A stretch of 64,000 nt of DNA from Candidatus Tantalella remota (GTDB lineage Bacteria; Omnitrophota; Gorgyraeia; Tantalellales; Tantalellaceae). Positions 56,501-64,000 of this stretch are shown piece after piece (within the stretch, counting starts at the first letter, position 1; each line of letters opens with the position of its first letter). The stretch spans positions 8,113 through 72,112 of the forward strand of contig JAVCCB010000015.1 in NCBI GenBank assembly GCA_030765685.1. Reading direction: 5' to 3'. The notes under the pieces were generated by a model. That model ran no database searches. It saw nothing but the letters and a program-made list of their open reading frames with translations, and was not told where the DNA came from. Position numbers and translations under genes: made by a program.

Positions 56501-57873
56501 ACGTGGGGGCTTATGGAAAGGCGCTAGCCGCGTTGGATAGCATAGAGTTCGGGAATGACGTTACGAGATCTATGCCGGCGAGGATAATAGATATTATAGA
56601 CAGGAATATCCTGCATCAGGAATCCATACCTTTACTGGAGAAGCTTATTAATACTTTTGGCGGTGAGTGGGTAAGCACTCAGGCACAGCTTGTCTTGAAC
56701 AAGATAGAAGTCGCGTATGCAAAAGAGGTCGATCTTGATAAGCTCAGGCAGGAATTTCAGGTAATAATAGGTGTTCCGGCTCCGGTGTTCATAAGTATGG
56801 GGGAAGAAAGAATAGAGGTTCTTGAGAAAGAGCTGAAAATACAAATAAAGATGGTCTCGGGAAATGATCAGGAAGAGATGCTGGGTAATCTGGATAAGCT
56901 TACTCAGGGGGAGAAATCTATCGCCGCTTTGCTTGACGTAGCACCCGGAACCGAAGGTATTGATGACATGGTACGAAGTTTCGCGGTAAAGGCTCGCCAG
57001 GATATTCTTGCGCTCATGCATCCTGAAATAACCTCTCTTACCGACGAGAATGTTAAAAGGATAGAGGATATAGGAGAACTGCAGTACATAGCCGGTATGC
57101 TTGTGAGGCTTCTCCCGGAGATGGATTCGCTTAATATAACCGAAAAGAGCATATATGATATCAGGGTGCATAACATATATGATAAGTACAGATTCGCGTA
57201 CAGCGAAGATGCTCTGAGGCATCTTGAAGACCTGAAAGTGGAACAAACACGCAAGAATAACCGTCACTTTATGGTTACGGGCATAGATAACGCGGCTGAT
57301 ATGCGACTTATGGCCGAATCGATACGTGACAGACGGCTTGCTATGGAGATAACGAAGCCTGAGGAAGATCCTATACGTGACGTACTCCTTGTGCGAAATA
57401 ATGAGATAAAGAATAATATTGAAGAATTTATGGAAGTTACCGGACTGGGGCAATATGTTCCCGCGGCCCAGGTGCTCTTTGTCGACGAGGGTGAGACCAG
57501 GACCCCGGAACGTGTCCTTGAGATGATACGAGATGAGATAGATGATAGTGTCCTGCCAGAGCAGGTGGCTATGGGTGCCAAAATGGGGATGATAGATATA
57601 GATTCCCAGGGCTCTACGGATATCTTAAGAAGCGACAGAAAAGATAGTATGCTTCTTGTTCAGCTGGAAGACGGTATGGTTAGCCAGCTCTACAGGATGA
57701 CTCTTGAGATCATGTCTAACAGCGACCAGGCGCCGTCGGCGGGTATTGACGGAGACCTGTCTCAGATAGGCAACTTGAACCTGTTCAATTATCTGCCACG
57801 GGTCGAACCGGTGGACATGAGTGAACTTAAGGATTACGAGGAACGCATACGTCAGATACTTGTAGCGGCGTAA
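26545..57873 (+). CDS. Giant multidomain membrane protein (10442 aa). Contains an N-terminal signal-anchor plus TraB/GumN-like module, an HExxH motif, several TM blocks, a GH5-like glycosidase, an NTP-transferase-like region with hexapeptide helix, a GalT-type HIT motif, and a PEP-utilizer plus PPDK_N-like module.
   Basis: ATG with RBS. 31329 nt in one frame ending at TAA 57871-57873. Coding composition throughout; antisense ORFs are low-complexity shadows. Confidence 0.92.
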   Translation: MGILRKGTGRQSLHTDKSGYSAAGVKAADEIYGVTTWRRRHAFFIKCVSIVVAVIFLHQQTGWAQAGKPVWANAKPLAKTYNEHMNLNGINIPYDVAKTQEVCVNPSEDVIIHVQDAHASLSAQHSIVNLLDSLVTNYDLRLIALEGASGYIDTSLLKTFPDKAIRDDTAEFMLKEGRMNAGEFFAVTNDGPEVEIYGIENDALYRTNVESFRNVANQRARHVADVEGMLGQLELLSEKMCSEELNMLNSNSVLHRDGRLSFTDHWKHMISLVEKYNIDFSRYGELKKILMSIELEGEINFAKANLERRRLIDELSREMDKEDLEQLVLRSLAFKQNNISQGDFHSYLISLAEKEGIEAAGYENLINFTRYIAIYESVELFKLYRELESLEDAVRERIYRNDDEREIYHMTKMIRLLKKLYSMELVNTEYVYLRENLGRVSVQDNARFIREKCDEYTVPIAGAYDLGMIFGDAEGAMDFYRQAEDRNAAMLANTLKAMRMTGKHVAALVTGGYHSTGLSELMQQKKLSYLVVIPKFESGKERPYIAILTNKKRPYQEILESGQYQLAVEAYFSATKGDLSRMKSSLFHALGEAAIEGKDIAAIKRIWEQAYRERYETIVSEKLDQMTFAPVTPEAFVSFLARVEAQRVGDATVIADRTGDGITFIALIRDGEYYEFNPASRSQRVVVARRLALQETSASTAEEEGAEDFANALQKIRSDVADIKSMLSSIIDTREELIIQLEGVSPADIMARLQDPANTTAKEVISKLRAKQINVPADWEGDEEISEKINVLVADVRSSAAYIARSEAIGEDSEQEPTRKAGAAEGLSEGAEERVEAQPTPDAATAAYIERSEVIGEASEKEPRRKRGPPGSMMGLLMVLGLSLFLNISSPSLGRAATPVAHPGGAVPELVQKGSDAMTSRVRATRESIAKSRGAGARKQFAADKQKMQDAIGEYFDNLRQTDYFKDRAARIASAGDGSDPLVLDTYISGGRFLLVDAYEDGYSWTVDMPERRMEKLNALIDRVWVSVDKDSLPEYIRAKTVTRQAEDGTSYEEPVDDIWKMLFVLSVLDPDTYDYLEKNNVRIVLVETDWFRGANRGTRFWRMIAPDGATIEIDRNQIAEMVGTLVHETVHHMNSDVPDSLWSLYRSTLGYGKEFFRELPSYEVEPFARQQEFMRAKFRLNVRMGFLSSAYLEQRWFFGMMSVLTWMITILAPAYIATKYAVKKMGGLKSIGEKVQNFVEKRTGGRDGQTNTATITVMAVMAATVATVFLAVLPALARPGSAIPMAGLLKSMAPMLALASVVISAAIVLSRNRASIAGLIANRRERRTKRRIEEAFMEALNNMGDEFRGAIDESVKENFRVKIQNDLTKLEPQISALRKERERAAISLTQGNAAAQKDINAADRKIARLLQAVEVLNTRLSSHEKIYEFLQDPKGVMPAVLEDDEYRETLQNYIGKMRALRMSGMSDEDMARLHTPAYFKSVIEAIPLLTLQGRAENLRKLGIKIKPYLLGYREDTMKEKVSLLARMGMPITASNVRLSQVKMIKTAITSYVNGILADAPVQQERDQLAALVEKTLTADMEVLVHPDYRGKNPFLSSYADAVYEEKDESVLTEEDRDALGRERDQLSELRDRYMAVIASPARMSDDDFEDLGDFLTRLSDGDLALYAEQHLSEEELEELNRLSEKTISIPQQEIQADFLYKIVSDKTINGQEIFDRVLYEEGVYALPQKMVVEELVADQEDIRTAHKKEFRGAVDAVKQHLKNLDTARSLYTAGEWIGLTRQIFKIRRDFSRDMKERIKALRYNDLYRDQARIFERYHDEYLLQLMGIDISRKDDGTLDLDRILLDLGIIGRDRFRELSRALSVMFPGTTIYSPVIRAMGFFSGAKGWMESQSEKTARMFDRIPLFGSMPAYARVMLMISMGIVVFASFALAALIPAAAPPTPTAPSITMETPTPLGYMETQVGLGEIEPIQAVLNVADIDTSYTPEYMQEWIADQLNDAWPTGVWEEVITPELAPAAPVAEPELLIAQAVDTNTVIDTGVTPGITPASGAPVLEAPVSEAPALETPVVEEQDIPVMEIIDVEEITVDEVKEHLTVEGGFRLPLLGRLWGGTTPEREEAARKAIILLSRVENPRQQKQMYKLGKKSVNRMKSEDEDSILRNTLYEFALEEAKRLQGDDTYQGDVEEVIGSILDSVRTIPQRGTYDKVREGLLSRPLLSDTDMLLTLLTADNLLDERLDIDLATINYLKENGTGGIFGNFKVWIGLGYDTRSESLSMALPGVSLTLLDRGKDARVSEAMANIGNKRAEYYASTVSAMRDFFVLWQNANQITDEIGRLEKGVARLKVELEQAHEEDRPGILSRIRTAEGMVDDDQAELGKITARIKALMGIRPDRAISLDFSKPISPDAIDNAFRICADYGVELGAPADVIKANAGAIWGAASAEEADIAGIRTVTIGAKVDFLNILTDWGLVGLTGTLDLRWGRTMTEAHAEFLKAVKTMYAEMSEKDAEVKKVTLLRVQSSTRALLASMDENIERLEKIKKEHEAPAKRWTRNRYDYMQAIFDIQHARVIRDQVELQVQAVWAELGLEYRLVEGVPEARAVMDMDAVMQQVMDRITTRGDIRELELLKTRALGEFKAMGITPPESMTGEKVGAGRTLRNAGVRALTTIGLGDGITLGGSLTGQDIAGGYGWMEDISESREDITRWWTSFGIEIRPENALGLWQQYWEVTYKEADMLMKNKVYRWSCDVLSMINSYRGLEAQLASAERQLELAKEIQADILADRYSTVEEADMVDKSAEFVSEKKALLETVRAQLSESMNISLDDVAGEGVVSADEIEGLLARTLESAGIEGYDPEGAEKELLETARQKTVVLLRLARFKKMEVPVGIAWESYQKLSPRRTQTTDDAGNVIMNDLTSQAFTEDVTDADGATVTDYVTENTREYYVEWTSVLENLLQKTVIVKRPKAVVDKADFDLERWPSRATRVRRIAVADREEASDNLNSSRQELMDQDTALAGLIERYAAYDPYVTPRMIRYQEKKVEGRRSEVIANEAALVNADIRLIRVAGVNWRETEGPQAEERDYSREEVMHKQIQAGLDGSEAFIKMLTDYVDVDLRLSVETPNIDDRLDTVDGYLADINGWRDYLDNERWNSYSWADSGSGGDTVGESIDPNTGTVTPADDSQQSQQQAGLDATRATLDGYEEQLNEQKSQLEDIKKRQIAGFIDWKIEIKVRPFAELADAGKSRRKAKDAEAEEKQIEYAFAFRMIQDYVQLQAVREKLASEQQLEASVRVFLEEEMAFKQEISPDAGMTDRVKQFTSELEEIKDNIAAYKYQLRHLEKRGTKGLKALVDSGVLELTYVDENGQIREIDITQVDPALFNKVMQTVQEKWPQVQRSVLAREISEINLAQLSIPRNLASNFEIRHPFGSREEFGTRLVLGIYVNIIEPGRAYRKASEQVSLWINEAKQRDAEISFQNTLKALETRITEYAEAMIRHQAAYQNGERSIAEAMENWGDLDPNALIVLGETRYTMREARENFIEARANYNEAMLELQVYVHVLGDDKPETMAELLSPVTAEEKATITAAGVSPDQVQAEALKLPAPDWVTGPAAIRDADIRIETDIFLSNVLSDREYTEDEVDHWVGYFRYLSQPNFRDYTKDEAVRHITGMTWWAKKMMPRLEGVEIPDFFGRCVDPYSLSDRAAENPMIGFIDFAMAYEEYMMARGQESMGRDADPEIARRRTERKMDEVIQALKTGGAELEALKTEIDKVGLAKNPDDWDLKLVMMKKYGDAITGRNLRVTKYNFADRRFLANLYTYTVLHSLTPEETDNLYSTVLPELVKLVNDIAGDSLSPENIRDLPGDQAKYLNWLYEQMDEVPAEKQERLQGWIDAYSNMLAENIALDRAMTLLTIASENTATLQGMGIDTDLAKEIKKLKYRSDVLTAIAMGEAAPKDMDKFMSLMSTSMDKESIEAGTGELIPNINIVPRGLRRTRDVWTGILGPDGIFDGRHVLSYRYNTDNSYSVDYQAPYYVPSATEVDEGIYTEVARKEAQAHGGIKTSDYDSSDNFKKTVFGDNTEKEVISGIIGPDNDYEVRISGSPTPAENRIYVYKKGVLTEIRNLEGMFIKKRGYKGEFLYDAHTTDVNVLRGAGINEKMAGRIFGSRQAAPDEVVREVEGIEIADGVVTGDIVVIADKDVVRKLLVDHPSLGSPDNKALVDALFYAQGDNRFTNVRMGELMTLGEASRATIKSYLESAARNIGKDEIDFDLTDMDTADSFVWWTAAVMNGQVPDAIYEGDMAPVMAKMAEISEWPEIRETAEFLISYDNRARENGEVVGNVYRMLYSNARSIIEGEMTGKEAKALIKEQLHVVREAYMLVTGETPYGYQELTSEEKTSMQRILGSNYTLVGVLGALAVGLLFVMRARKRKRVAEGALKRVGLDEDTGAAARLLDARRGDLERAAINSLLAGNKESEIQDTGIMAIVIQEDLGDVAAAYQFASESDDERIRGRVIIVQNTNTLFRGFEDEALYHEAREAYWMDQTGDRSAAHILASAEQSRRFARAELGGLTPYHYQEIGKLGSSEAVERLQGEERAEHLRVLAEYGMTWASDYEDAFQLQLSVRLAELLAEERAIALPQVTPPTAPRAPAVPGVTPEFFDKQITYSTKYLLSLQNNVKKALADAVKKKEKRPLRKRIASYFINPGYEFVEDDQKVIARSIIEACDTMRSALDRASSIRESLSGSESLGIKAINSAFVKLVDMLKPEEEASVIGVQSSLTGRLREDGAKKTNLDRERETGELVLVLQNLSNNLVSIESVYATAGITDLRINRSYTLPELIVEVQNSLTEKKPISSGAIAAISQLTEEFFFATAGNEIIENLAVQQSFGPPGHFLKKTSIVKDLRTTLDIAEKEARAVESGQATYEKYFVDRKKKFGYAPSTSINLSIRANNFIELSMTDDDKNVIWEGTTVEGLEGVDEVTSGVEFYGKGRQLTTFESLIPIIFGMTERLKSASEIGARLRAKGTSMPLAQVTEQLSGPLRKARVDGYVTQSEHLGDDSSREPVRERLGLRFAVTVLAAAALMFAFGALVLPNLPAGLFPAVHELTAIGILDPHAKASAATGVFFFFKQLVTMVFFTITITMIQKKYLADTGLFNKTGLVRILDDDIGKAVPDRRMAEAVEGMKETLPADSRQNFRGVKTRKEDGSYESSSKIAGELSRPIGLKGFFEKSKKPMNVVRRSGAEGADPFFFVYLNSVTRKEMVEALLRAEEKATGTLSGDLVDYLNEQRAAGYRVDGKIVVSNEDIIRKIEEGAPERAENIYQALKEDKRFFIHVARCTPLFGEPFLLETVNIRNLDTDYPNLTVWPALVEHDQKVTDRFTELVSQGRIPDDMHALLSSQMGVQKQNLPIIDEKEARSRLARGESLEGVTLLTAEDGRVKTGWDMIERLPETKSVATGYAISAMETVAEVLRNRGTLSEDDSLFMAVPDFSEAGAPEVFEILDAEDRANTLQPWSIAIGFKRINTIVEYLQEVVETEGYDAIRPAVLRRSNRALYNEITRWGIDLLMVTDTVNDFRKMREKMSASAETNRYIDKQQEIFEASLLSEEELATLVGAEKEKALEKAFVMSEMRARLSPAVLQGVLRLNPLGDNPFTTQDYGPWNMIKRGLVAQRSIISLLGGLLSGGLIAYVAFTAFSYFGFSAMAYAGAVIGGSIGFKGAIWLVGNLVLKYRHLSEGVERSINKASPFPYDGTTNSFWLEKLVGRNMRTGEETFRGKLEHGLYEYKKGLYELGPDDAEANAALEFMATFTPYRTLGIHDSNDIIEDAKLGSLCSKYGYRNMIIADYGTETFEANLPELGYEWWYQRSRWITITPIAVMLRSMRDFFIFFGVIIGMGFGGALMGSRMVGLMGIPLGLIGVGLGAVAGGLIGNVLGGVAYRIKRAFGRAPYPEQESSFAKQAGVFNFMLLIFLLFGKPATLMTTFTFGTTGLLAAATGLAKLGYLGSYAQVIMTFAPPMFWFITSAAVGLTLFLIPFYIIFEMSVFGALFSGPDNESLVRDGLDRMKETAEKFQNYKISVEARRLSGILKYRPEDKEAIEESVASMRELLFELSSPDDTPEEADLRAFDERDMDKNWRVQSVLDAVLDGSRDTTQLRRDLNQIARDKAISLNPSLQVRVKIMEHIDKAFDKFAVTDSYSYDDMIKVLSDMREGRLGFNKGWQIDMFDDAVMRFTKAVETQKPATLEDAVKIHEEEMRLIGDAISTKIAEIRGRYDEVIAGKISFGSRAAMMAAGLIAGAAVLWAKNLIIPGVAVTMIISGIALSALWLTSRAGIKMGIGMMPYFYLKQVVISLQIAVLYFIHMIPAAKITLEQIWARRDNWWSRTSHDEREILPESRARYGEKVRANIREMFTRRERVGRSMFETPAVSFAFFLASMTFLLLLINNGLTWRMRDAAVVGLFLSSVPLIWNTLMLRFDEVGKSQFFRPAISLAGAGFVIASAGLVSLGLKTMGYPLFVAPFAFEATVALVGIAMLSAAIFTPKDRLREIYMNIYNKWMLYAVVLGPATAMLVLLPFGQNLLEGRKTRFIEDNVNPMVEIYHASRSGDIYFSTEDVMWRLAQGMPAEGKSQAELEDFRKRASIIRQMARMRDEGITNTDIAENLINAFKDCPYPSGPDGLAGWVRINADIFAVKAGIAKGTLHVQKLKDYYEKQIEVYGFDRTKTDLARRYIESIEAYEKDEVERGISDRELRGDYDLIRIQLEAYRRLLMETGDPAAQLKYLHIVGIVENSIEGVGISEVWNLPSVEYEDFELSFYKKEYLTTVDHVSSGARKEQMPEALDEDAIVTDPVKGEITAKINISRERRSNVIGLNVQDMLGRPLAEDEQMVLTVTVPEKFVTGNPMASISLQGVWSDSGGNWQHGAHNIVFGERPLADGQYKYNIAISPLDEYDSYQFGYYTDGGFSPNSADMKVAGIRVLIGNADQIQDSFEGEITIQGRIRKVQKMEKPLNVRGDATGGEEFRKNSGMSIGLSFHDVGKWGAAEHDGFSSEQGKAKLRETFRNFAEDGIMNVRMQSLFGDGRAGLVFDDAGNFTGFDDYVESDILALFEVLDEIRVDYPEFKIMPVLFSFELADGTTSENGFTIGEHPELLTDSENRDVLLSELNRVFGIVWGHEGVTAWDLFNEPEIAHNTMDAEGNRVLNIGEVQEFVRLLAPDIQRQGGDVTVGSFTRTQMLNNWLDSPLDLLQFHWYDKSPYNDINFLKAWMSDGRPVIAGEIGALGKFPVQLQGGDIRDIAEMLRRSGVNGAYPWQDWGKYDRGTSRNYAKWLESQSKRPVSVPEEAEAPVVKPVSAPEGKPLPPVSMRPARPVIPKKLFRGQLPRRTGMMGLILAIGTVFMAAGQGSAVAGEVAMPVAFTGAVAQIVSTAGTMVVEETGPGVIFALAERVTAGQLLPYAIGLVVLVGLMAFTVYLARKRTRKEIEDQFAVERRELIDARRIGAIENDDVREMEAMLMEDTEFGTAARDEIARLKAIGDTADLDKFIRETFIQRFNIDLTRTALTREDYKKRGYDTIIISSSSADDAAAKKLAVQRMFRGLPVEIFSEVVSNDGGQIMGHMTVLEAARENGLDLDEMFSKKGGPKVAVWHDGGMASRFSPITPSLNDARGLQDLVGRFENSRLEMTDAELLFMVMLNSLDFGSTSTATTVDTFWTSQIVAGTVAHSMIERSDAPFVKFLVPIDWDVPKDLLYKQLLQFGTVTTDENGYIRNFYGNQKKSCIRKAKDGTLEINPDHQYIYDDLKSAPTAYFDFGSFSMNNAMLKALYDYWMKKTALDDDGNEYRIIRKAVETGVVAKELKRDIDPHFTQPLAFLLQAIVSERNLGRDMLEGITPVDAFRQYTGEERRLQLQKQVALIRQRLPGGARVRMGEFFEEEVEIEDAEKPGEKKKVKQIVIDKNTGNPEEKILDPVTETIEIFLLNRDNPDIFPEDLSRTLGSISLGQNAEWQTYRSAYDITNEKLFMLTDLKGKIIHIANEKKKDETWETSPVETEPEPRDLVRAENARRIRNIPDDALCDFYVNGRHIVLSRAEITGPEPWEGEGVRIHNSIVQGSILLPGSEIIDSVVDKSQGRIIATASYVQRVTVKDLDAENSLVHMVVSDGAVESRGEIVSDVFRPELLTDEYHDGRFFRGQTRLRVPMYYDPKEEDEVIYGDNKFAIDRDEEKVERGEVPDELVIRRMGTVRSQNEDIESKIRIQAMIIGGMREALEARVKTLKNSGKLTAGFVKDIFKNLDLYGPADQYALAEIVYFANLIHSISQDQAVRDISGSAMKEHVFFERIRESFRGAEYDRGPRQATNPQETDELFNERLGALKFIFDQNIDVMDGNNRFKVFLWLEVLVHTDVITTSALKGLLIDLERRLPDDISFGSVMETAYEVLAIQGYPYDDTNSGYYVLRRNFLNMVRKAVPLKEYSLVGDTDLGAVVDQGMQRIRQERWKNGSPVLFYEYSEDVDTVPLPNGAEFDIVNIPGRLAYEEHKRAERPSALEASQEELPVVGPKIVREHDKSCRFSALSKQMVCAVTRHGVEFDVFANISPFGENHVVMATHEPSYQLIDDVEKAQALLYFARRLGPEYEGIFNSTNAAASVFHFHGQYIKARTKLWDNIRDSKARIDWDPGYFNYPAVRGGTLSGWPAKVRYMESSDIGQLGRAIMADVKDLESKDMAYNLSFRFEDGRYKVMVFPRKKERTKTLTPKSDISLGMGGVDLSGRLIVYKPGDRQYLTEDLARTAANFETVMRDEVTDAYWVSPLSKTWLQSVKDVVVRLLPPSREEHPISWGASVAASAGYGLFAGGLGYFFGIGARHMVVLISTLAIVSIIYLMQALDLKYDALAKARDLFGKIMPKRAGPGLVPLFRPNFDNILPIPQDSPYLTYVKDNKLYVNVKEMSRRPALVQYFYYFHEWFHLQGVMSHLVLYGVQGMLLAILPQIVLGTLAANTSMNFSIAMVGGLAATVTMGRGAMAIILSFIKEDGSIKLVPEEEYPKDISTAQATGEEYRQAHTNRRIRADILGGRYVLIKVDDEGELYLETKGDNAKGVRRDFNDKLNAISDNEELKAFLAKNKHLIEDLEIYLVEPEPGAPDSVHPSLLTCDGRNWQVAVSGSNGGRSQSVYMTREFFESMSVEDVLLPVLYNQITRAIMLYRYWHLHPDIAYPAGKHTSQIQRFVDEIVNTGPVRTELDNVIRDQIRLREELDVDEGMRAQLISLMEAIIEENQFEDESGRKQKYKAFMDLRDELMKFNRSIEEPDYDKAVEVWGKISYRVNSMLREGHAMYDVVRGINKMKLIRGIAREISGILEQYVAEFGIYRSEGAIERGQAVGKVVVIDKVEDIEGRLNDITGDEIWVLPILTIRAPYLEGRGIIVSAGQGGHARQVASDKALPLANIPNAIECLKQFDGQWGMLRVEPNGIVRFRPAHKDEIDTRDEYVRKPEAKKVEIPKPVLGVDVPLAYDLEDVDKFYINRVGAKAANLGHMLNNGFAEYIPPGAALSFEFSSRFMNTQNTEGVSLRDRIKAIIEDIPVERGKVTDEDLFLEILEKARNEIMNTPLEGENGELKEAVLASIRRIRGKAGLLEPMTEEEQSKILEAVKKVIATKYTETAVRLRLDNQVADEDVYAGIVLQIVGSDAEPVTTDRPQISGTISTFNPLSTSKGEIHISGGPGVGAVVDDEGLPAQVIVNKVTGKITIVKSTSDEDTMTVPQPGTFLARSSFNFEDLLELSGAGQYESYADRETREAGVPSTLKQVISKDLATRLADIGKKMELLYGYWPQDIEWTVTPGGKLFLVQTRSIPDGVPHDVGEPKLLYTDIYKDMLPLVTDEQLKQLRELKRERNAPALLDLIQIGKMDFELYRNKAELGTRIIAVSYLESLLAKDKTIGEGLTEETVDAMMAYALNPSNMLTAPGMLKALSHLSDSLRHRERLKLQAEMADIEMGTGIGGHLGWLAFAEFASNVGAYGKALAALDSIEFGNDVTRSMPARIIDIIDRNILHQESIPLLEKLINTFGGEWVSTQAQLVLNKIEVAYAKEVDLDKLRQEFQVIIGVPAPVFISMGEERIEVLEKELKIQIKMVSGNDQEEMLGNLDKLTQGEKSIAALLDVAPGTEGIDDMVRSFAVKARQDILALMHPEITSLTDENVKRIEDIGELQYIAGMLVRLLPEMDSLNITEKSIYDIRVHNIYDKYRFAYSEDALRHLEDLKVEQTRKNNRHFMVTGIDNAADMRLMAESIRDRRLAMEITKPEEDPIRDVLLVRNNEIKNNIEEFMEVTGLGQYVPAAQVLFVDEGETRTPERVLEMIRDEIDDSVLPEQVAMGAKMGMIDIDSQGSTDILRSDRKDSMLLVQLEDGMVSQLYRMTLEIMSNSDQAPSAGIDGDLSQIGNLNLFNYLPRVEPVDMSELKDYEERIRQILVAA
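26668..28285 (+). other. Conserved N-terminal module of ORF2: signal-anchor helix (26668-26740) plus TraB/GumN-like domain (26870-28285). Paralogous to the ORF3 N-terminus.
   Basis: IIHVQDAHASLSAQ...LRLIALEGASGYIDTSLLK near the domain start and VAALVTGGYHSTGLSELMQQKKLSYLVVIP near its end. The latter resembles the TraB/GumN C-terminal motif FxAVGAGHLxGxxGVxxLLxxxGYxV. Alignable with ORF3 aa 1-530. Confidence 0.5.
28941..29144 (+). repeat. In-frame direct repeat (~66 nt x2, ~72 nt apart) inside ORF2, encoding AAYIARSEAIGEDSEQEPTRK / AAYIERSEVIGEASEKEPRRK
   Basis: 28941-29006 and 29079-29144 are about 85% identical at nucleotide level. Confidence 0.8.
29926..29940 (+). other. HExxH zinc-metallopeptidase-like motif (LVHETVHHM) in ORF2
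   Basis: Codons cat gag acg gta cat at 29926-29940. Preceded by hydrophobic residues in an SprT/WLM-like pattern. Motif-level only. Confidence 0.3.
33700..37230 (+). other. Possible outer-membrane-factor (TolC/OEP)-like helical and beta periodicity in ORF2 (weak)
   Basis: Recurrent Ala/Leu/Glu helices ending in Y/N-rich turns (e.g. EARENFIEARANYNEAMLELQ, SELEEIKDNIAAYKYQL), alternating with Gly/aromatic strand-like segments. Composition-level resemblance only. Confidence 0.2.
43520..46245 (+). other. Polytopic transmembrane block of ORF2 (about 15 or more predicted helices), with glycine-zipper segments
   Basis: e.g. GMGFGGALMGSRMVGLMGIPLGLIGVGLGAVAGGLIGNVLGG, FAPPMFWFITSAAVGLTLFLIPFYIIF, AAMMAAGLIAGAAVLWAKNLIIPGVAVTMIISGIALSALWL, FVIASAGLVSLGL...VALVGIAMLSAAIF. 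Confidence 0.65.
47600..48470 (+). other. Glycoside hydrolase family 5-like (clan GH-A, (beta/alpha)8) domain in ORF2
   Basis: WDLFNEPE with the acid/base Glu in NEP (48058-48066). LLQFHWY as the conserved His-x-Tyr. VIAGEIGA with the nucleophile Glu (48334-48336). Spacing matches GH5. Followed by a Pro-rich linker and TM helices. Confidence 0.65.
49200..50960 (+). other. Sugar-1-phosphate nucleotidyltransferase-like region plus left-handed beta-helix (hexapeptide) segment
   Basis: VAVWHDGGMASRFSPITP (49441-49494) parallels GGxGTRLxPLT. FGTVTTDENGYIRNFYGNQKK parallels yGvv..d.dG.v..f.EKP. Hexad periodicity in VRIHNSIVQGSILLPGSEIIDSVVDKSQGRIIATAS (50775-50960). Confidence 0.35.
52130..52700 (+). 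other. HIT-superfamily, GalT-branch (HxHxQ) nucleotidyltransferase/phosphorylase-like domain
   Basis: SVFHFHGQYI with H-F-H-G-Q at 52432-52446. Upstream NISPFGENHVVMATHE. Confidence 0.4.
54570..54830 (+). other. PEP-utilizing-enzyme mobile (phosphohistidine) domain-like segment
   Basis: GAIERGQAVGKVVVID...GDEIWVLPILTIRAPYLEGRGIIVSAGQGGHARQVASDKALPLANIP parallels G.aspG.a.G.v.vi...GdILV...tdP.w..kaaGiVTe.GG.TSHAAIVARElGiP.VvG. Confidence 0.45.
54990..56030 (+). other. PPDK_N-type ATP-grasp nucleotide-binding domain (pyruvate phosphate dikinase / PEP synthase / rifampin-phosphotransferase family)
   Basis: FYINRVGAKAANLGHMLNNGFAEYIPPGAALSFEF parallels GGKGANLAEM...G.PVPPGF.IT. C-terminal QDIEWTVTPGGKLFLVQTRSIP parallels DIEWa...gklyiLQaRP. 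Confidence 0.55.
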
Positions 57874-57996: not shown

Positions 57997-58036
57997 ATGT
58001 AGAGGTGCACAAAACCTTCCTGCATCTCGAAGAAAA

Positions 58037-58064
58037 GGCTCCGGCCGTAAGGTCGGAGCCTTTT
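58037..58064 (+). terminator. Rho-independent terminator candidate for ORF2
   Basis: ggctccggcc-gtaa-ggtcggagcc: 10-bp GC-rich stem with one G.U pair and a GNRA-like loop, followed by TTTT (58061-58064). About 165 nt after the ORF2 stop. Confidence 0.6.
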
Positions 58065-58078
58065 CAATTGTAGAGTAG

Positions 58079-58123
58079 GTTAAGGTTGAGGTTAAGGACG
58101 TCATTCCCGCGGAAGCGGGAATC
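58079..58123. repeat. REP-like hairpin (cattcccgc-GGAA-gcgggaat, 58103-58122) with adjacent linker ggttaaggttgaggttaagg. Inverted copy of the composite at 26339-26377.
   Basis: The reverse complement matches gcgggaatgacatcctttcttaacctcaacctcaacc, found upstream of ORF2. Confidence 0.65.
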
Positions 58124-58325
58124 CATTGATAATGATAGGTATGCCGTTTATGGTTAATAGGTTACGTCTTTGGAATCGTTAAAGGGTTTACGGCTGGGGT
58201 TGAACCGCCACCTCTTAACGTAAGACGTTTCGATAGACGCAACCCTTCAACGTGATCCGTATTTGTTCCTGATGTCCCAATATTCTGCTTTCCTGGTCCC
58301 GATACCCGGTTTAACCTGGTCGAAA

Positions 58326-58401
58326 TTAACCTGGTTATATTTGCAGACCTGCCTTGATGTTTCATCAAGGCACCCCCCCCCCATGAAAATAACCAGGTTG
58401 A
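58326..58401. repeat. Structured intergenic element: 11-bp inverted repeat aacctggttat / ataaccaggtt enclosing an 8-bp hairpin (58352-58370) and a C10 homopolymer (58373-58382)
   Basis: Read directly. The IR core equals the tandem-repeat core at 26141-26194. The C10 tract could be slippage-prone. Confidence 0.7.
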
Positions 58402-58436
58402 AAATGCGACCCTATCTTGATCTTAAGCTGCACATC

Positions 58437-58507
58437 GTCATCCCCGCGGAAGCGGGGATCTAATGAAAATATTACTTCCATTTGATTCCCGCGTTCGCGG
58501 GAATGAC
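58437..58507. repeat. REP doublet in opposite orientations: gtcatccccgc-GGAA-gcggggatc (58437-58460) and gattcccgcg-TTC-gcgggaatgac (58484-58507)
   Basis: Two 24-nt palindromes 23 nt apart. The second is the reverse complement of the 58100-58123 type, a BIME-like inverted REP pair. Confidence 0.75.
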
Positions 58508-58827
58508 GTTCGAGTTTGTCCCTGATATCCCGATATCCTAGTCCTTGATCCCCAGATTCCCTGATGTCCTGCTCCTACGAGTATCCAGGATCTGATGACT
58601 GGTTACTGGATCCCCGATGATTGCAATACAGTAAAGGTTTGTAAAACTAGGTTTATGGGTAGTTCTGTGAGGTCACTAGAGGGTTCCCAGGAGCCTTGAG
58701 AGGCGAGAAATGGTGCGTTCGGTCTTCTTATATTATTAATACTAAAAGAGCCCGAGAGGCCATTTTAAGCGAAAAAAGCAGTTTTTTCGCCATGCGGTTA
58801 AGGTGTAAAATAGCTAGAAATAAGGCT

Positions 58828-58855
58828 TTGACAAACTTTCCAAATATGATAAGAT
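58828..58855 (+). promoter_or_regulatory. Candidate sigma70 promoter for ORF3: TTGACA (58828-58833), 16-nt spacer, extended -10 TGaTAAGAT (58847-58855)
   Basis: Perfect -35 hexamer. The -10 hexamer is 4/6 with an upstream TG. About 125 nt upstream of ATG 58981. RBS GGGAG at 58973-58977. Confidence 0.45.
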
Positions 58856-58980: not shown

Positions 58981-61900
58981 ATGAGTAGAGATCACAAAAT
59001 TTTCAAAATTATCGCGCTTGTCGTCGCGGGTATTTTCCTGTATCAGCAGATAGTATGGGCCGCTGGGGATATGGCTAATACCGCGCATATGGCGTCAGGT
59101 GATCATGGCCTGCCCATTGCCGCGCCTATCAATATCTCAGAAGAGCTTGCCCAGACAGAGACTATACAGATCTCCGGTAGCGGTGAAACGATAATCAACA
59201 TTCAGGATTGTCACTCCTCTCTTTCAGCGCAGTATTCAATAGTAGAGATACTCGAAGAACTGATGAATAATTTTAACATGAACGTTGTCGCCGTCGAAGG
59301 CGGACACGGGTACCTTGATACGTCCATACTCAAGAGTATGCCGGACAGCGGGATCCGCGAAAAGACCGCTGAATACCTGATGAAAGAAGGCAGGATATCC
59401 GCCGGTGAATTTTTTGCCGCGACGACAGATAAAGATGTAGCTATATACGGTGTCGAGAATAACGACCTTTATCAGGAAAACGTAAACGTCTTTCGGGAGA
59501 TACACGCGGGAAACCGCTCTAACATAGAGGATATTAATTCTCTTATAGAGGAACTTAAAATAAAGGAAAAGGAAGTTTACTCAGACAGTCTGATAAAACT
59601 GGTATATAAGTCCCGTCTTCATCAGAGCGATAGGATAACCTTCGATGTGTATTGGGATTTCTTAAAGGACGCGTGCGAGGCGGCCGGGGTTGCCACGGAT
59701 CAGTACGTTAATATAAACAGTTTTACCGAGTCAGTACAGCTGGAAAAAAGCATAGATTTTGATAAGGCTACCGACCAGAGGAAAGCTCTTATCGGTCTTC
59801 TTATGGCAGAGCTGAATAAGGAAGGGCTGGAAGAACTTGTCTTAAAGTCTGTCTCTTTCGAGAAAGGGGAGATCGATCAGGCGGAGTACCATAGATGGCT
59901 TCTGGATTTTGCCGGGACAAGGTGGGTCGAGACCTCGGCCTTTACGGAGCTTTGCAAATTTTCAAAATATGCTACAGAGTACAGAAAGCTCGATGTGATA
60001 GGTCTTTCCAGAGAACTTGATGGGGCTGAAAAAGAACTTCTTAAAAGATCATTTTCATCCGATAAAGAAAAGGAGCTTTACAGACTTATCAGGATATTGG
60101 AACTTGTTAAGTCACTGTTCAATATAGAACTTTCGAGAGAAGATCTTAGCGCGTTGACGCGTTACCTGGAGATGGTCTCCGCGGAAGAATATACGGGATA
60201 TTCCAGGGAAGATGACCTCTCGGAGGAACGCCTGGATGGCATATTCGCTGAAGCGAAACAAGCGTTAGAGTTTTACCGCCTGGCAGAGATTCGTAATCAG
60301 GCTATGATCGAGAACACTGTCAAGGCTATGCGTGAAGAGGGACGGCAGGTAGCCGCGCTTATATCGGGAGGGCATCATGCTGAAGGCCTTACCGGAATAA
60401 TGAAGGAAAAAGGATTATCTTATTTAGTGCTTATGCCGAGGGTAACGGGAGACAAGTCCCGTCCGTATGTGGCTGTTCTTACGAAAAAGACCGGCCCGTA
60501 CAAGGAACTGATATCAAGCGGAGAGTACGATCTGGCGCTTCAGGCGCTGTTCGATTCGGGGTCTCTCGCGGAACTTGACGATATGTTCGTCTACTGGTAC
60601 GACCAGACGCTCGCCTCCGGAGAGGATATGCGGAAGGCCATCGATCAGATGGTGCTTAATTACAGAGATATACAGGAAGGTATTTCCGCATCCCGCCGCG
60701 CGGCCATGGATTTTGATCCGGTGAAACCGGAAGAGCTTAAGAATTATCTGGAGTCTATAACGAAGGACGAAGAGACAGGGTCGATAACGACGGAAAACGG
60801 AGTGTACAACGTAACGGAGAAGGGAATAAAGCTCGAAAGACGCGTTAAGAAAGTATCCAAGGATGAGATAACCGGCGCGGGTATGATACCCGCGATACGG
60901 TATATCCTGGAGAAGCGAAACATATCTCTTAAGCATCAGGCCTGGATGGAGCAGTCACTTTTCTGGGGGATAAACCTGAGTGTCGTCGGGATGATGTCAT
61001 CCAACGTCATGCTCGGGACGCTGATCACGTGGATGACATTCATGATGGCTCATTTTTTTAAGACTAAGGACATGCCAAACGCTCCTCCGTCGTCTTCGGT
61101 CATTACGGTAGGGCTCATAAACGCACTTTTCGCCGCCGCAAGCGTATCGTCCTTTAATATCCCGGTAATAATAATCTCTTTTATAGTAGCAACTCTTATC
61201 CACCATTTCGCGAATATCAAAGGCGAAGTGCCGGGGCTTAAATACGTTATAAATGCTTTTGAGAATCTGTCTTTCGTGAAAAGTATACGTTTGTCATTAG
61301 AGATCAAAGCCACCACGGATGAGAAGGAGAAGCTCGTTCTTATCGCGAGGAGACAGGGGCTTGAGTTGACCCCGGAAGACCTTAAGGACCTGGATGACCA
61401 GTTTTTCCGAAATGTTACGAGTACATTGCTGGAAAGCGCCCGGGAGATGCGTATGAGTCCCGGGATGCTGAAGGAATTATACAGACCGACGCGTGTTACG
61501 GAGATAAGCATACCGGTAAAAATGGATTCTGGAGAGACAAAGACATTTGACGGATACAGGATATTGCATAATGACGCGCGAGGGGCGGGTAAGGGAGGCA
61601 TAAGGTTCCATCCCGCTGTTACGCGTGGCATGGTAAGAGCTCTCGCTACCGATATGACATGGAAGAACGCTATAGTCGGTATACCGTTCGGCGGGGGAAA
61701 AGGCGGTATCACGGTCGATCCGAGAGAGATGTCAGAGACCGAGATGGAAAAGCTTTGCCGGGGGTATGTGAGGGAATTGCTTAAGAAAAATCCCAGAGCC
61801 ATAGGTGTTTTTGATGATGTGCCGGCTCCGGATGTCGGTTCCACCGCGCGGCACATGGCATGGATGCGTGACGAATACGAGAAGATAAAGGAAATAGAGG

Positions 61901-64000
61901 ATGATTCCGCCGCTGGCGTGATCACGGGGAAACCTATAGATCAGGGCGGGTCGGAAGGGCGTACGAAAGCGACAGGGCAGGGAGTGTATTTCGCGGCACG
62001 CGAAGCCATAAAAACTTTTGGCGATAATCTCGACATAGGGGCGGATATGACCAAATGCACCTACTCCTTTCAGGGAGCAGGTAATGTAGCTTTCGAAGCC
62101 ATAAAGATATTTTTCGCCGCCGGCTGTACGAAGATCCATTACATGAGCGACGTGTCGGGCGGAATACACATGACGAACGGCCTGGACGAAAAACTGCTCG
62201 CCGCGCTCGAGAAACATCTTTCCAGCAAAGCCCTTCTTGAGGAGTTCGAGTATGAAGGAGTAGAGCATGTTCCAGGCGCAGCGGTGCTGGAAGCCGATGT
62301 GGACGTACTTATACCGGCGGCTCTGCAGAACCAGATAACAGTCGAAAATGCCGATAAGGTTAAAGCCAGGCTTATCATTGAAGGGGCGAACGGTCCGACT
62401 ACTCCGGAAGCTGATGAGATACTTTTTAGTAATGGACAGGTAGCTGTCCCCGATATACTGGCTAATGCCGGTGGTGTAACGGTATCCTACCTGGAATGGT
62501 TACAGAATATACAGAGAGAACATTGGGCGCTTCCGGCTATAGATAAGATGCTGGAAGAAAGGATGTCGATAGCATTTATGAACGTGGTCAAGACTGCCCG
62601 CGCGTATAGGACTGATCTTCGTACGGGCGCGATGCTTCTGGCTCTCAAAAAGGCCGCGGATGCCGAGACGGCCAGAAAATTTGGGGCATCCCGGAATAAA
62701 AGGGAGAAAAGATCATATAGGTCAAAAGTAAACCTGTATTCTCCGGATACATTCGAAGAGCTTAATTTCATAATAGATAAAGGAAAATATAAGAAGCTTA
62801 TCAGAAACCTTGAGAGGCGCAAAAGGCGGGAGCTAGAGTATACGGTTCAGGAGATAGAGGAAAAGTTTTCAGGCGCGGAAGGAGTGGTGCTTATCACCGG
62901 TCCCGTAGCTGTAGGCAAAGCCGCATTGGCGCAAAACCTCAGGAGATCCCTTATGCTTAACGGCCGCAAAGCTAAGGTACTTCACCTGGACGGTCATGGA
63001 CATGATATCAGTGACGCTGAACGTCTTCTTAGCGGTGCTACTGTGGGCGTTAGTCCGGCGGAACAGTTCTATTATGAGGAAGACGTAGAAGAGCTCAAGC
63101 TTGAAGAGAATGACATACTTATTATAGAGGGTGCGGAAGCTTTCGCGCCGAAGATAACGGAACTGCTGGCTGGAAGAGGAAAACCCACATATAAGATTTT
63201 CATGAACACGGCGCCTTCGATGAAACTGAGGGACAACTATCCGCTGACCTCACTGCACGCACGCATGATGAGAGACATACTTGACAGAAGGATCACGGAG
63301 AACAAAAGACCGTCGGAGACGCTTTTGCCGATAGTAAGGGGGCGCAGCACTCAGTTGGATTTACTGTATCCGAGATGGGTGATGGCAGACAAGACCATAG
63401 GCGCATATATGCCATATGAACTTCCGATACTTAAAAGAGAGATCTGGGAGGATCTTCAGGAAGACCTTGAGAGTGTGCGGACGGAGCTGTTGCGCGCGAA
63501 AAAACACTCCGAACACAATAATTCTGAGTATATAGAGGAGATATCGACAGTTCTTAAGAATATGGAAGACCTTTATTATCTTCTTGAGCCCGTTGCGGCT
63601 GCGCCGGAAGATATTAATTTGCCTAAATGGTCCATAATGAGGCAGTTTCTGAGTCCGGAGAAGAAAGAAGAATTTAAGATGGTAGACCTTGTGAAGGCGG
63701 CCGGTCTTATCGTGGTGGCTGCTTTTGCTATGGCGGTGTTCACACCGCTGATATCAATGGCCGCGGATATGTCGGTGCCGAAAGCGGCATTGCTCTCATT
63801 GCTTCTATTAAGTTTCCTGGCAACGACGGGGCTCGGGGTGTATTCTATCGCAAAGGGAGGCGCCAGGGGACAGAGGAATGGAGCTTTGCTGGTTATGATC
63901 GCCATGCTGGGCGTGATCGTGGGCTCTTCCACATACCATATGGAATACGGCCTGCAGGCAGGTTCCCGGAGAGCAGAACAGACCGATCTCACGCAGAAGA
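58981..64000 (+). CDS. Third giant-type ORF, 3'-partial (>=1673 aa, runs off window end). Contains an N-terminal signal-anchor plus TraB/GumN-like module, a TM block, an ELFV-type glutamate dehydrogenase domain, a uridine-kinase-like P-loop domain and a C-terminal TM block.
   Basis: Translated codon by codon from ATG 58981 to the window end with no stop codon. Good RBS. Not listed in the ORF track only because it has no stop in the window. Confidence 0.9.
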   Translation, partial: MSRDHKIFKIIALVVAGIFLYQQIVWAAGDMANTAHMASGDHGLPIAAPINISEELAQTETIQISGSGETIINIQDCHSSLSAQYSIVEILEELMNNFNMNVVAVEGGHGYLDTSILKSMPDSGIREKTAEYLMKEGRISAGEFFAATTDKDVAIYGVENNDLYQENVNVFREIHAGNRSNIEDINSLIEELKIKEKEVYSDSLIKLVYKSRLHQSDRITFDVYWDFLKDACEAAGVATDQYVNINSFTESVQLEKSIDFDKATDQRKALIGLLMAELNKEGLEELVLKSVSFEKGEIDQAEYHRWLLDFAGTRWVETSAFTELCKFSKYATEYRKLDVIGLSRELDGAEKELLKRSFSSDKEKELYRLIRILELVKSLFNIELSREDLSALTRYLEMVSAEEYTGYSREDDLSEERLDGIFAEAKQALEFYRLAEIRNQAMIENTVKAMREEGRQVAALISGGHHAEGLTGIMKEKGLSYLVLMPRVTGDKSRPYVAVLTKKTGPYKELISSGEYDLALQALFDSGSLAELDDMFVYWYDQTLASGEDMRKAIDQMVLNYRDIQEGISASRRAAMDFDPVKPEELKNYLESITKDEETGSITTENGVYNVTEKGIKLERRVKKVSKDEITGAGMIPAIRYILEKRNISLKHQAWMEQSLFWGINLSVVGMMSSNVMLGTLITWMTFMMAHFFKTKDMPNAPPSSSVITVGLINALFAAASVSSFNIPVIIISFIVATLIHHFANIKGEVPGLKYVINAFENLSFVKSIRLSLEIKATTDEKEKLVLIARRQGLELTPEDLKDLDDQFFRNVTSTLLESAREMRMSPGMLKELYRPTRVTEISIPVKMDSGETKTFDGYRILHNDARGAGKGGIRFHPAVTRGMVRALATDMTWKNAIVGIPFGGGKGGITVDPREMSETEMEKLCRGYVRELLKKNPRAIGVFDDVPAPDVGSTARHMAWMRDEYEKIKEIEDDSAAGVITGKPIDQGGSEGRTKATGQGVYFAAREAIKTFGDNLDIGADMTKCTYSFQGAGNVAFEAIKIFFAAGCTKIHYMSDVSGGIHMTNGLDEKLLAALEKHLSSKALLEEFEYEGVEHVPGAAVLEADVDVLIPAALQNQITVENADKVKARLIIEGANGPTTPEADEILFSNGQVAVPDILANAGGVTVSYLEWLQNIQREHWALPAIDKMLEERMSIAFMNVVKTARAYRTDLRTGAMLLALKKAADAETARKFGASRNKREKRSYRSKVNLYSPDTFEELNFIIDKGKYKKLIRNLERRKRRELEYTVQEIEEKFSGAEGVVLITGPVAVGKAALAQNLRRSLMLNGRKAKVLHLDGHGHDISDAERLLSGATVGVSPAEQFYYEEDVEELKLEENDILIIEGAEAFAPKITELLAGRGKPTYKIFMNTAPSMKLRDNYPLTSLHARMMRDILDRRITENKRPSETLLPIVRGRSTQLDLLYPRWVMADKTIGAYMPYELPILKREIWEDLQEDLESVRTELLRAKKHSEHNNSEYIEEISTVLKNMEDLYYLLEPVAAAPEDINLPKWSIMRQFLSPEKKEEFKMVDLVKAAGLIVVAAFAMAVFTPLISMAADMSVPKAALLSLLLLSFLATTGLGVYSIAKGGARGQRNGALLVMIAMLGVIVGSSTYHMEYGLQAGSRRAEQTDLTQK
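59011..60560 (+). other. N-terminal module of ORF3 (anchor helix KIIALVVAGIFLYQQIVWAAG plus TraB/GumN-like domain), paralogous to ORF2 aa 40-580
   Basis: IINIQDCHSSLSAQYSIVEIL...NVVAVEGGHGYLDTSILK...EGRISAGEFFAAT...VAALISGGHHAEGLTGIMKEKGLSYLVLMPRVTGDKSRPYVAVLTKKTGPYKELISSGEYDLALQALF aligns block by block with the ORF2 N-terminus. Confidence 0.5.
61390..62680 (+). other. Glu/Leu/Phe/Val (ELFV)-family amino-acid dehydrogenase domain (glutamate-dehydrogenase-like), complete, embedded in ORF3
   Basis: PTRVTEISIPVKMDSGETKTFDGYRILHNDARGAGKGGIRFHPAV. IPFGGGKGGITVDP with the catalytic Lys (61687-61710). VPAPDVGST. Cofactor Rossmann segment FQGAGNVAFEA. C-terminal ANAGGVTVSYLEWLQN. Confidence 0.85.
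62884..63470 (+). other. P-loop NTPase domain resembling the uridine kinase / phosphoribulokinase family (Walker A has Ala instead of Ser/Thr; may be degenerate)
   Basis: VVLITGPVAVGKAALAQNL (GxxxxGKA). DILIIEGAEAF parallels dvvivEGilal. KIFMNTAPSMKLRDN...RMMRDILDRR parallels iFvDtdadvRLaRRi.RD. RPSETLLP...LLYPRWVMADKTI. Confidence 0.35.

Follow-up and report, generated by a model that had tools for sequence, protein, structure and literature searches.

A complete glutamate dehydrogenase module, probably a working and membrane-tethered enzyme, in a long protein of Candidatus Tantalella remota

Background

What is a complete metabolic enzyme doing between the hydrophobic blocks of a long membrane protein? 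The question is raised by ORF3, an open reading frame at the end of a 64,000-nt stretch of DNA (the window) from contig JAVCCB010000015.1 of the Omnitrophota bacterium Candidatus Tantalella remota. A first-pass annotation, made from the letters of the window, had recognised in ORF3 a classical glutamate dehydrogenase (GDH) of the Glu/Leu/Phe/Val (ELFV) type, with predicted transmembrane (TM) helices on either side and a kinase-like P-loop domain after it. The long and giant proteins of Omnitrophota are among the least understood features of a widespread, mostly uncultured phylum, and the majority of domains in them have diverged too far to be assigned. The GDH module, an easily assayed textbook enzyme that recurs in dozens of long proteins, offers a handle on their activity, membrane side and processing.

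The reading put forward here, to which we give a probability of roughly 0.7, is that ORF3 encodes a membrane-tethered, working GDH, probably on the cytoplasmic face, in an Archaeovorin-like multi-enzyme membrane protein. All coordinates are those of the window and amino acids (aa) are counted from the ATG at 58981. Three related proteins are referred to throughout, namely P0165, the complete protein of which ORF3 is the first part, and the close orthologues P0166 and P0167, which come from independent ENA assemblies.

Results and discussion

The glutamate dehydrogenase module

The dehydrogenase had been placed at 61390-62680. NCBIfam GDH models cover aa 813-1232, ie nt 61417-62676, the Pfam models PF02812 and PF00208 are aligned over their full length, and each of the GDH motifs that had been quoted is present where it was reported.

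61417..62676, + strand: complete glutamate dehydrogenase module (aa 813-1232), from Pfam, NCBIfam, PDB relatives and alignment with E. coli GdhA
61486-61884, + strand: PF02812 (ELFV_dehydrog_N), aa 836-968, 6.1e-49, 165.5 bits against a cut-off of 25.3, profile positions 1-129 of 129
61552-61614, + strand: GDH motif GYRILHNDARGAGKGGIRFHP
61690-61707, + strand: GGGKGG motif
61699..61701, + strand: codon of the catalytic Lys, K907, in GGGKGG, aligned with E. coli K128
61819-61845, + strand: VPAPDVGST motif
61831-61833, + strand: codon of the partner Asp, D951, in PAxDxG, aligned with E. coli D168
61945-62676, + strand: PF00208 (ELFV_dehydrog), aa 989-1232, 9.7e-64, 215.8 bits against a cut-off of 23.4, profile positions 1-240 of 241
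62074-62091, + strand: GAGNVA, the dinucleotide-binding GxGxxG/A motif (aa 1032-1037)
62461-62508, + strand: GDH motif ANAGGVTVSYLEWLQN

The closest solved structure is that of Thermotoga maritima GDH (2tmg), matched end-to-end at 6.9e-102, and the hexameric GDH of Pyrococcus is also matched at about 1e-101. Identity to archaeal and Thermotoga GDHs is about 47-50%. The best NCBIfam GDH match, GdhA_Arch, reaches 401.8 bits against an equivalog cut-off of 750; judged by these scores the module belongs to the family, at a level below that of an equivalog. Residues were aligned with an E. coli GdhA sequence 100% identical to PDB 3sbo_A. In that alignment K871, K895, K907, D951, R994, N1137 and S1169 of ORF3 correspond to E. 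coli K92, K116, K128, D168, R207, N348 and S380, and K907 and D951 also align with T. maritima GDH. The catalytic Lys and Asp are thus both intact, and the loss of either, which the first-pass annotation had named as a result that would undo its GDH claim, has not occurred. We take K907 to be K125 of Clostridium symbiosum. The residues expected to bind the carboxylates of glutamate (K871, K895, S1169, R994 and T982) are all present; their counterparts in C. symbiosum numbering are presumably K89, K113, S380, R205 and T193.

Conservation was assessed over 36 GDH modules of long proteins, one from each 50%-identity cluster, 31 of them with the kinase-like domain. The positions compared are those which we take, from motifs, to be C. 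symbiosum K89, G90, G91, K113, K125, D165, T193, R205, the Asn of EGAN, V377 and S380. They are kept across the 36 modules; the three exceptions concern non-catalytic positions, while Lys and Asp of the catalytic pair are invariant (36/36). Between ORF3 and P0166 or P0167 the identity is 66-73% in the GDH, 47-51% in the conserved N-terminal region (the head, described below) and 54-55% in the kinase-like domain, so that the GDH is the best-conserved segment, and in the other carriers too it is by far the strongest Pfam match. Because of the conserved active site, the high conservation of the segment as a whole and the strength of the Pfam matches, the module is most likely a functional dehydrogenase, specific for glutamate and kept by purifying selection.

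The first-pass annotation had also suggested a moonlighting or cofactor-binding module. A fold kept only as a structural or cofactor-binding spacer, ie a pseudo-enzyme or scaffold, would be in keeping with the great divergence of many other domains in such long proteins, and with the adjoining kinase-like domain, which has lost a canonical catalytic-site residue. Against this, the catalytic and substrate-binding residues are retained in modules less than 50% identical to one another, the two residues that select the gamma-carboxylate (Lys and Ser) are both kept, and no segment of the protein is better conserved. A spacer role is therefore disfavoured, and we regard it as very unlikely.

Free-standing GDHs of about 415 aa are only 44-48% identical to the module; the best of them are archaeal, and there is no long protein among the top 120. 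A rough tree by neighbour joining groups the sampled free GDHs together and puts the GDHs of the long proteins outside that cluster, on long branches. Membership of the large GDHs was considered and rejected, there being no match to PF05088 (Bac_GDH) in ORF3 or P0165.

The P-loop domain

The region after the GDH had been described as a uridine-kinase-like P-loop domain. That description holds for the fold and fails for the PF00485 score and for the canonical Walker A motif.

62791..63657, + strand: P-loop kinase-like domain (aa 1271-1559), predicted uridine kinase/PanK/PRK-type fold
62899-62922, + strand: Walker A, GPVAVGKA, without the usual Ser/Thr

Searched as a single sequence, the region gave only noise against the PDB and likewise no Pfam match. 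A structure model from an alignment of 23 members has a pLDDT of 92, and its predicted fold is nearest to the UCK/PanK/PRK/GLYK clade (uridine kinase, PanK, PRK). PF00485 matches 4 of the 23 members at E <= 1, with a best value of 0.085, which is short of its threshold, and the best NCBIfam match, to a nucleoside/nucleotide kinase family, scores 21.6 bits against 250. Two Gly and the Lys of the Walker A motif are invariant. The residue after that Lys is A, M, I, L, V, Q, P, R, D or Y in 23/23 members, a departure from the canonical GxxxxGK[S/T], whose Ser/Thr normally binds Mg2+. Also conserved are an Asp after strand 2, a strand of the form h-h-h-h-E-G, and a lid Arg. A nucleotide-binding or regulatory partner of the GDH or, with less likelihood, an atypical kinase is tentatively preferred to a standard uridine kinase. 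The genes around the stand-alone forms described below give no hint of a substrate for the kinase-like domain.

A conserved cassette with soluble relatives

Carriers of the GDH and kinase-like domains, together called the cassette, were taken from the best 150 matches of an exhaustive search with aa 761-1560. In that set the GDH N-domain, the GDH NAD domain and the P-loop domain follow one another in this order in at least 31 diverged proteins, whose lengths range from 750 to 7,800 aa. The position of the cassette varies (in a 7,823-aa protein, for instance, it takes up residues 3534-4263), and it is internal in about 20 other long proteins from NCBI, JGI, ENA and Logan. The long carriers are all from Omnitrophota where the source names them. 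In this data set the profile of the P-loop domain matches cassette proteins exclusively, always directly after the GDH; it has no match in the neighbouring ORF1 and ORF2 or in 44 proteins that have the same head as ORF3. A word-indexed search with the same profile returned two short fragments only, and a search of genome contigs with aa 1240-1673 found no relative.

The same two domains are also encoded by genes of their own. P0171 (MDD2707958.1, 800 aa) is the product of a complete gene on an 81.7-kb contig of a Verrucomicrobiae metagenome-assembled genome, in an ordinary neighbourhood, and it has no N-terminal hydrophobic segment. P0183 (852 aa, on a 13.8-kb contig) has a soluble N-terminus, and P0182 (839 aa) is encoded by a complete gene on a 73-kb contig.

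Locus L001 (JAQUAF010000015.1, Verrucomicrobiae), 8001-10403: stand-alone gene of P0171
Locus L003, 8001-10520: stand-alone GDH and kinase-like gene in an ordinary neighbourhood

The start of the L003 gene overlaps an upstream DUF1846 gene by 47 nt. A conserved 72-aa open reading frame lies 3' of the stand-alone gene in L001 and in a further locus, L002.

The GDH and kinase-like domains belong to a separate two-domain family, which exists as a soluble gene too. The dehydrogenase, which the first-pass annotation had called housekeeping-type, does not have the look of a gdhA picked up by chance. The analysis delimits a GDH subfamily, so far uncharacterised, whose members are joined to an atypical P-loop domain.

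The reading frame and the full-length protein

A frame without stop codons runs on the + strand from 58885 to the end of the window, ie 5,115 nt are continuously open. The likely start of ORF3 is the ATG at 58981 (MSRDHKIF...), with GGGAG just 5' of it and a promoter-like site about 125 nt upstream.

58828..58855, + strand: promoter-like TTGACA-16 nt-TAAGAT with a TG extension, 10/12 consensus positions, a consensus match only
58981..63999, + strand: ORF3, codons 1-1,673 of the gene for a 3,128-aa protein, from open frame, start codon and GGGAG; runs off the window end

ORF3 is identical, with 0 mismatches, to the first 1,673 aa of P0165, which was recovered in the exhaustive, profile-free search and is NCBI MDP8298582.1, recorded as 'Glu/Leu/Phe/Val dehydrogenase dimerization domain-containing protein' and encoded on an 86,299-bp contig. 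The half of the protein beyond the window was taken solely from this protein record. At 3,128 aa the complete product is a long, mid-sized paralogue of its giant neighbour ORF2 and is not itself giant, as ORF3 had earlier been called. It has about 16 hydrophobic segments, leaving out two artefactual peaks within the GDH and P-loop domains. Its Pfam domains are GDH, Hydrolase_2 and M50, to which the kinase-like domain is to be added; there is no Pfam match to C39, S8 or SecA_DEAD in ORF3 or P0165. The features beyond the window are as follows.

P0165 aa 1723-1851: match to a cell-wall hydrolase (Hydrolase_2)
P0165 aa 1945-2110 and 2184-2340: two homologous beta-domains, with a lipobox-like segment before each (...LSPLASC and ...VATVTSC)
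P0165 aa ~2347-2477: Peptidase_M50 (site-2 protease) match with HEAGH, weak and partial (29.7 bits)

A homologous beta-domain, with the segment RRSFLKGILLFFGLGGLFSLLGC, lies between the head and the GDH of P0167.

The order of domains could in principle be an artefact of assembly or gene calling, in which a mis-join or an overlooked stop codon had run separate head, gdh and kinase genes together. The contig comes from a metagenome assembly and the window ends inside ORF3, and the first-pass annotation had itself raised a mis-joined contig as a concern. The frame, however, is open throughout with an even GC content at third codon positions (GC3). P0166 and P0167, at 47-73% identity, have the same order of head, GDH, kinase-like domain and TM block, and the cassette is found at internal positions in the other long carriers. 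Because independent assemblies have the same architecture the contig is not mis-joined here, and an artefact is extremely improbable. GC3 is 0.545 in the GDH segment and equally 0.51-0.55 around it. A recent horizontal origin of the segment, for which GC3 gives no sign, was rejected on this ground.

Head and tail

The N-terminal part of ORF3 marks it as a member of a larger protein family.

58999..59067, + strand: N-terminal hydrophobic segment (aa 7-29), signal-anchor-like, motif F-x-x-Q-Q-x-x-W-A, hydropathy 2.07, basic N-flank and acidic C-flank
59149..60843, + strand: conserved head (aa ~57-621), predicted alpha/beta core of EreA/ChaN/TraB/Tiki-like fold, interrupted by a large helical insert
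26545-28600, + strand: head region of ORF2
56755-57873, + strand: tail region of ORF2

No Pfam model matches the head. Its invariant positions are Q-D-x-H (aa 75-78), E106 and G-G-x-H (aa 463-466), a His/Glu/His pattern which we take to be that of the EreA/ChaN/TraB/Tiki hydrolase superfamily, and it is treated here as a probable hydrolase domain of that type. The head, of about 600 aa, is common to at least 44 other proteins at 21-54% identity, and the remainder of each is unrelated. Where named, nearly all are from Omnitrophota, with single matches labelled Endomicrobium and Elusimicrobiota. Their cargo, from Pfam, includes HEAT, radical SAM/B12, HAD, cellulase, PTS EI/HPr, SecA, TPR, GNAT and AKR domains. 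The N-terminal hydrophobic segment of head-bearing homologues has a conserved polar motif, F-x-x-Q-Q/D-x-x-W-A (IFLYQQIVWAAGD, IFLHQQTGWAQAG), which is unusual for a plain signal peptide.

ORF2 (10,442 aa) shares the head with the ORF3 protein at 36% identity, and ORF2 and P0165 have in common a C-terminal tail of about 390 aa, aligned to both C-termini (23% identity, E 3e-16). Because the same head and tail surround different cargo in ORF2 and ORF3, a modular design of head, variable cargo and tail is suggested for at least part of this protein class.

Placement in the membrane

The TM flanks that had been predicted at 60955-61200 and 63690-63930 coincide with two hydrophobic blocks.

60955..61218, + strand: hydrophobic block A (aa 659-746), maybe three or four spans, loop KTKDMPNAPP, from hydropathy
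63688..63939, + strand: hydrophobic block B (aa 1570-1653), predicted to cross the membrane three times, with the basic loop KGGARGQRN joining spans 2 and 3 (the B2-B3 loop), from hydropathy

Spans were called from hydropathy and charge (the positive-inside rule) only. The loop of block A, K-(T-K)-D-M-P-N-A-P-P, recurs as KDMPNAPP in a similar block before the GDH of another carrier (P0178, aa 1-82), and a similar H-x-x-K...P loop was seen by eye near the end of ORF1; block A with its loop may be a reusable TM module. In P0166 and P0167, too, the kinase-like domain is followed, at a distance of 4-22 aa, by a TM block. The idea that TM flanks go with the cassette everywhere was rejected, the block right after the kinase-like domain being confined to the closest relatives.

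In the arrangement that we favour, ORF3 would be the N-terminal half of a multi-pass membrane protein built like ORF2, with a head, cargo between hydrophobic blocks, and a tail. Its cargo would be a pre-existing two-domain unit, consisting of a small hexameric-type GDH followed by a P-loop domain of the UCK/PanK/PRK fold. The flanking helices would hold the GDH at the inner membrane face, where its cofactors are, and there it would catalyse glutamate + NAD(P)+ <-> 2-oxoglutarate + NH4+ + NAD(P)H, and the P-loop domain would sense or use a nucleotide. The cytoplasmic face is judged the likelier side because of the cofactors that both domains require, the existence of soluble stand-alone forms and the basic B2-B3 loop. 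The stand-alone forms argue that the native compartment of the cassette is the cytoplasm, and the loop puts the cassette side inside, provided that block B has three spans. As for the earlier suggestion of a catalytic domain localised to the envelope, tethering to the membrane is borne out, and on the face of the membrane hydropathy and the positive-inside rule give conflicting parities.

Several points weigh against a working enzyme tethered on the cytoplasmic face. GDHs of the small type act as hexamers, and the ORF3 domain is tethered at both ends. The NCBIfam scores are far under the equivalog cut-offs, so substrate and coenzyme are read from residues only. No curated family covering the kinase-like domain was found in Pfam or NCBIfam, and the missing Walker A Ser/Thr puts the activity of that domain in doubt. 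Beyond the window, the parity given by internal signal-like segments does not agree with a cell-wall hydrolase on the outside. The charges around the N-terminal segment of ORF3 are those of an N-in, C-out anchor; were it an ordinary Sec signal or anchor, neither the head nor the GDH would be cytoplasmic. Between the head and the GDH, P0166 lacks any hydrophobic segment, and P0167 has two, a strong and a weak one, ie an even number. Several carriers (P0174, P0190, P0182, P0193 and P0217) have a signal-peptide-like N-terminus followed directly by the GDH, with no TM segment detected. Finally, topology predictions are described in the literature as unreliable for the long proteins of Omnitrophota (10.1101/2023.11.21.568195).

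The charge pattern of the N-terminal segment, the segment counts of P0166 and P0167 and the signal-peptide-like N-termini also favour an extracytoplasmic or prey-facing enzyme, which would work on the outer face of the inner membrane or at the cell surface and use glutamate and NAD(P)+ leaking from attacked cells. This supposes a probably epibiotic or predatory bacterium. In papers based on DeepTMHMM/TMHMM, most enzyme domains of such proteins are likewise put outside, and the same authors doubt such localisations (10.1101/2023.11.21.568195; 10.64898/2026.06.07.730766). Dehydrogenases dependent on NAD(P), and ATP-fold domains, normally need cytoplasmic cofactors; the stand-alone P0171 and P0183 have no signal sequence; the start of P0182 overlaps its upstream gene by 47 nt, so that its 'signal' may not be translated; and the basic B2-B3 loop argues for the inside. 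On balance an enzyme outside the cytoplasm is unlikely.

On another reading the product would be a polyprotein precursor, cut after insertion into the membrane by its own proteases or those of the host, which would free the GDH-kinase unit as a soluble enzyme able to form hexamers. Fusion would then serve the co-expression of many enzymes from one gene and not the placement of the GDH at the membrane. Such processing is rather doubtful, with some evidence to recommend it. The M50 match with HEAGH is in the same protein, and in P0173, a further cassette protein, an M50 domain lies just upstream of the GDH; in predicted fold and His/Glu/His pattern the head resembles the EreA/ChaN/TraB/Tiki hydrolases; signal- or lipobox-like segments (...LSPLASC, ...VATVTSC, RRSFLKGILLFFGLGGLFSLLGC) stand before the repeated beta-domains of P0165 and P0167; and elsewhere the cassette is a soluble protein of 800 aa. 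Cleavage by C39 or S8 peptidases in giant Omnitrophota proteins is proposed by West-Roberts et al. (10.1101/2023.11.21.568195). However, no conserved cleavage motif is recognisable at the borders of the cassette, the M50 match is weak and partial, and C39 and S8 domains are absent from ORF3 and P0165.

An improbable extension of these alternatives makes the cassette, and with it the rest of the enzyme cargo between head and tail, part of a true bacterial polyprotein or display system, in which the protein would be threaded through the membrane and either cut in cis into many single enzymes, with M50, the Tiki/TraB-like head and the lipoprotein-type signals taking part, or its modules left on the outer face. 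If this were true, an apparently intact central enzyme of nitrogen metabolism would owe its production and placement to a mechanism that is not known for bacterial metabolism; in the outer-face version, the modules that depend on NAD(P) and nucleotides would act on glutamate and cofactors set free from attacked host cells. A working GDH held at the cytoplasmic face remains the reading we prefer.

Neighbouring reading frames and the intergenic spacer

All large open reading frames of the window are on the + strand.

47-24619, + strand: ORF1, >8,190 aa, cut by the window start, with Metallophos, SecA_DEAD, TPR and GT2 matches
24923-25876, + strand: gene of an IS200-like Y1 transposase (PF01797, 1e-10), between ORF1 and ORF2
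26545-57873, + strand: ORF2, 10,442 aa, a single Pfam domain, PPDK_N, at E <= 1e-5 (first 10,000 aa scanned)
58032-58065: terminator-like hairpin in the spacer between ORF2 and ORF3
58099-58133, 58436-58470 and 58481-58515: three copies of the short palindrome TTCCCGCGGAAGCGGGAAT in the same spacer
~58372-58382: run of 11 C in the same spacer

Most of ORF1 and ORF2 cannot be annotated by Pfam. The TTCCCGCGGAAGCGGGAAT motif has 4 matches in the window, all of them in the spacer, compared with 0.33 expected; two of these overlap on opposite strands of the third copy. The palindrome looks like a REP-like element. GC skew is positive in every 2-kb bin (+0.09 to +0.30) and AT skew in all but one, which makes the coding strand strongly purine-rich.

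Comparison with known systems

The fusion of an enzyme to a membrane protein had seemed unexpected when ORF3 was first annotated. As such it is not, because metabolic enzymes between TM blocks are already a published property of the long proteins of Omnitrophota; they are reported to have many TM regions with enzymes between them, among them glycolytic enzymes and PPDK (10.1101/2023.11.21.568195; 10.64898/2026.06.07.730766). The NCBI pipeline, moreover, already labels the present proteins as GDH-domain proteins. A GDH or ELFV module is not mentioned in the main texts of these two papers or in one supplement of the latter, nor is there anything on GDH in the searched text of other Omnitrophota papers. 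The literature text searched contains no description of the GDH and kinase-like cassette, of its soluble relatives, of the shared head and tail, or of the EreA/ChaN/TraB-like fold of the head.

ORF3 resembles the Archaeovorin-type or 'multi-enzyme metabolic' proteins in its Omnitrophota origin, its TM blocks with enzymes between them and an N-terminal region without annotated domains. It agrees with them in having Omnitrophota homologues, numerous TM regions and interspersed enzyme domains, and the SecA_DEAD of ORF1 and the PPDK_N of ORF2, hallmarks of such proteins, adjoin it. It differs in that the Archaeovorin set studied there consists of proteins of at least 30,000 aa with a divergent SecA_DEAD (10.1101/2023.11.21.568195), whereas the ORF3 protein has 3,128 aa and no SecA_DEAD.

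Compared with the clade of UCK, type I PanK, PRK and glycerate-3-kinase (1rz3, 3asy, 1xrj, 3avo, 3c8u), the domain after the GDH lacks the Walker A Ser/Thr, does not reach PF00485 and has an extra C-terminal helical region. The large GDHs (~115 and 180 kDa; Bac_GDH, PF05088) also carry an ELFV catalytic domain in a much longer polypeptide with extra domains. In ORF3, by contrast, the catalytic domain is a small hexameric-type one, and the additional domains have no relation to those of the large GDHs.

The small hexameric GDHs of archaea and Thermotoga (2tmg, P. furiosus 1gtm, Thermoplasmata, Nitrosocaldus) have the same two-domain ELFV structure, active site and GxGxxA/G fold as ORF3, and are 44-50% identical to its module. 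They are free soluble enzymes of about 415 aa, whereas the GDH of ORF3 is aa 813-1232 of a 3,128-aa membrane protein, with the kinase-like domain after it. Closest in design are the stand-alone proteins of the PVC group, represented by MDD2707958.1, which is annotated only as 'Glu/Leu/Phe/Val dehydrogenase' and for which no characterisation was found. They have the same two domains in the same order as ORF3, and the same Walker A in which GK is followed by a residue other than Ser/Thr. Their identity to the ORF3 cassette is 41-53% in the GDH and 27% in the kinase-like part. The difference lies in what surrounds the cassette, as MDD2707958.1 is a soluble protein from a single gene, without the head, the TM blocks and the tail.

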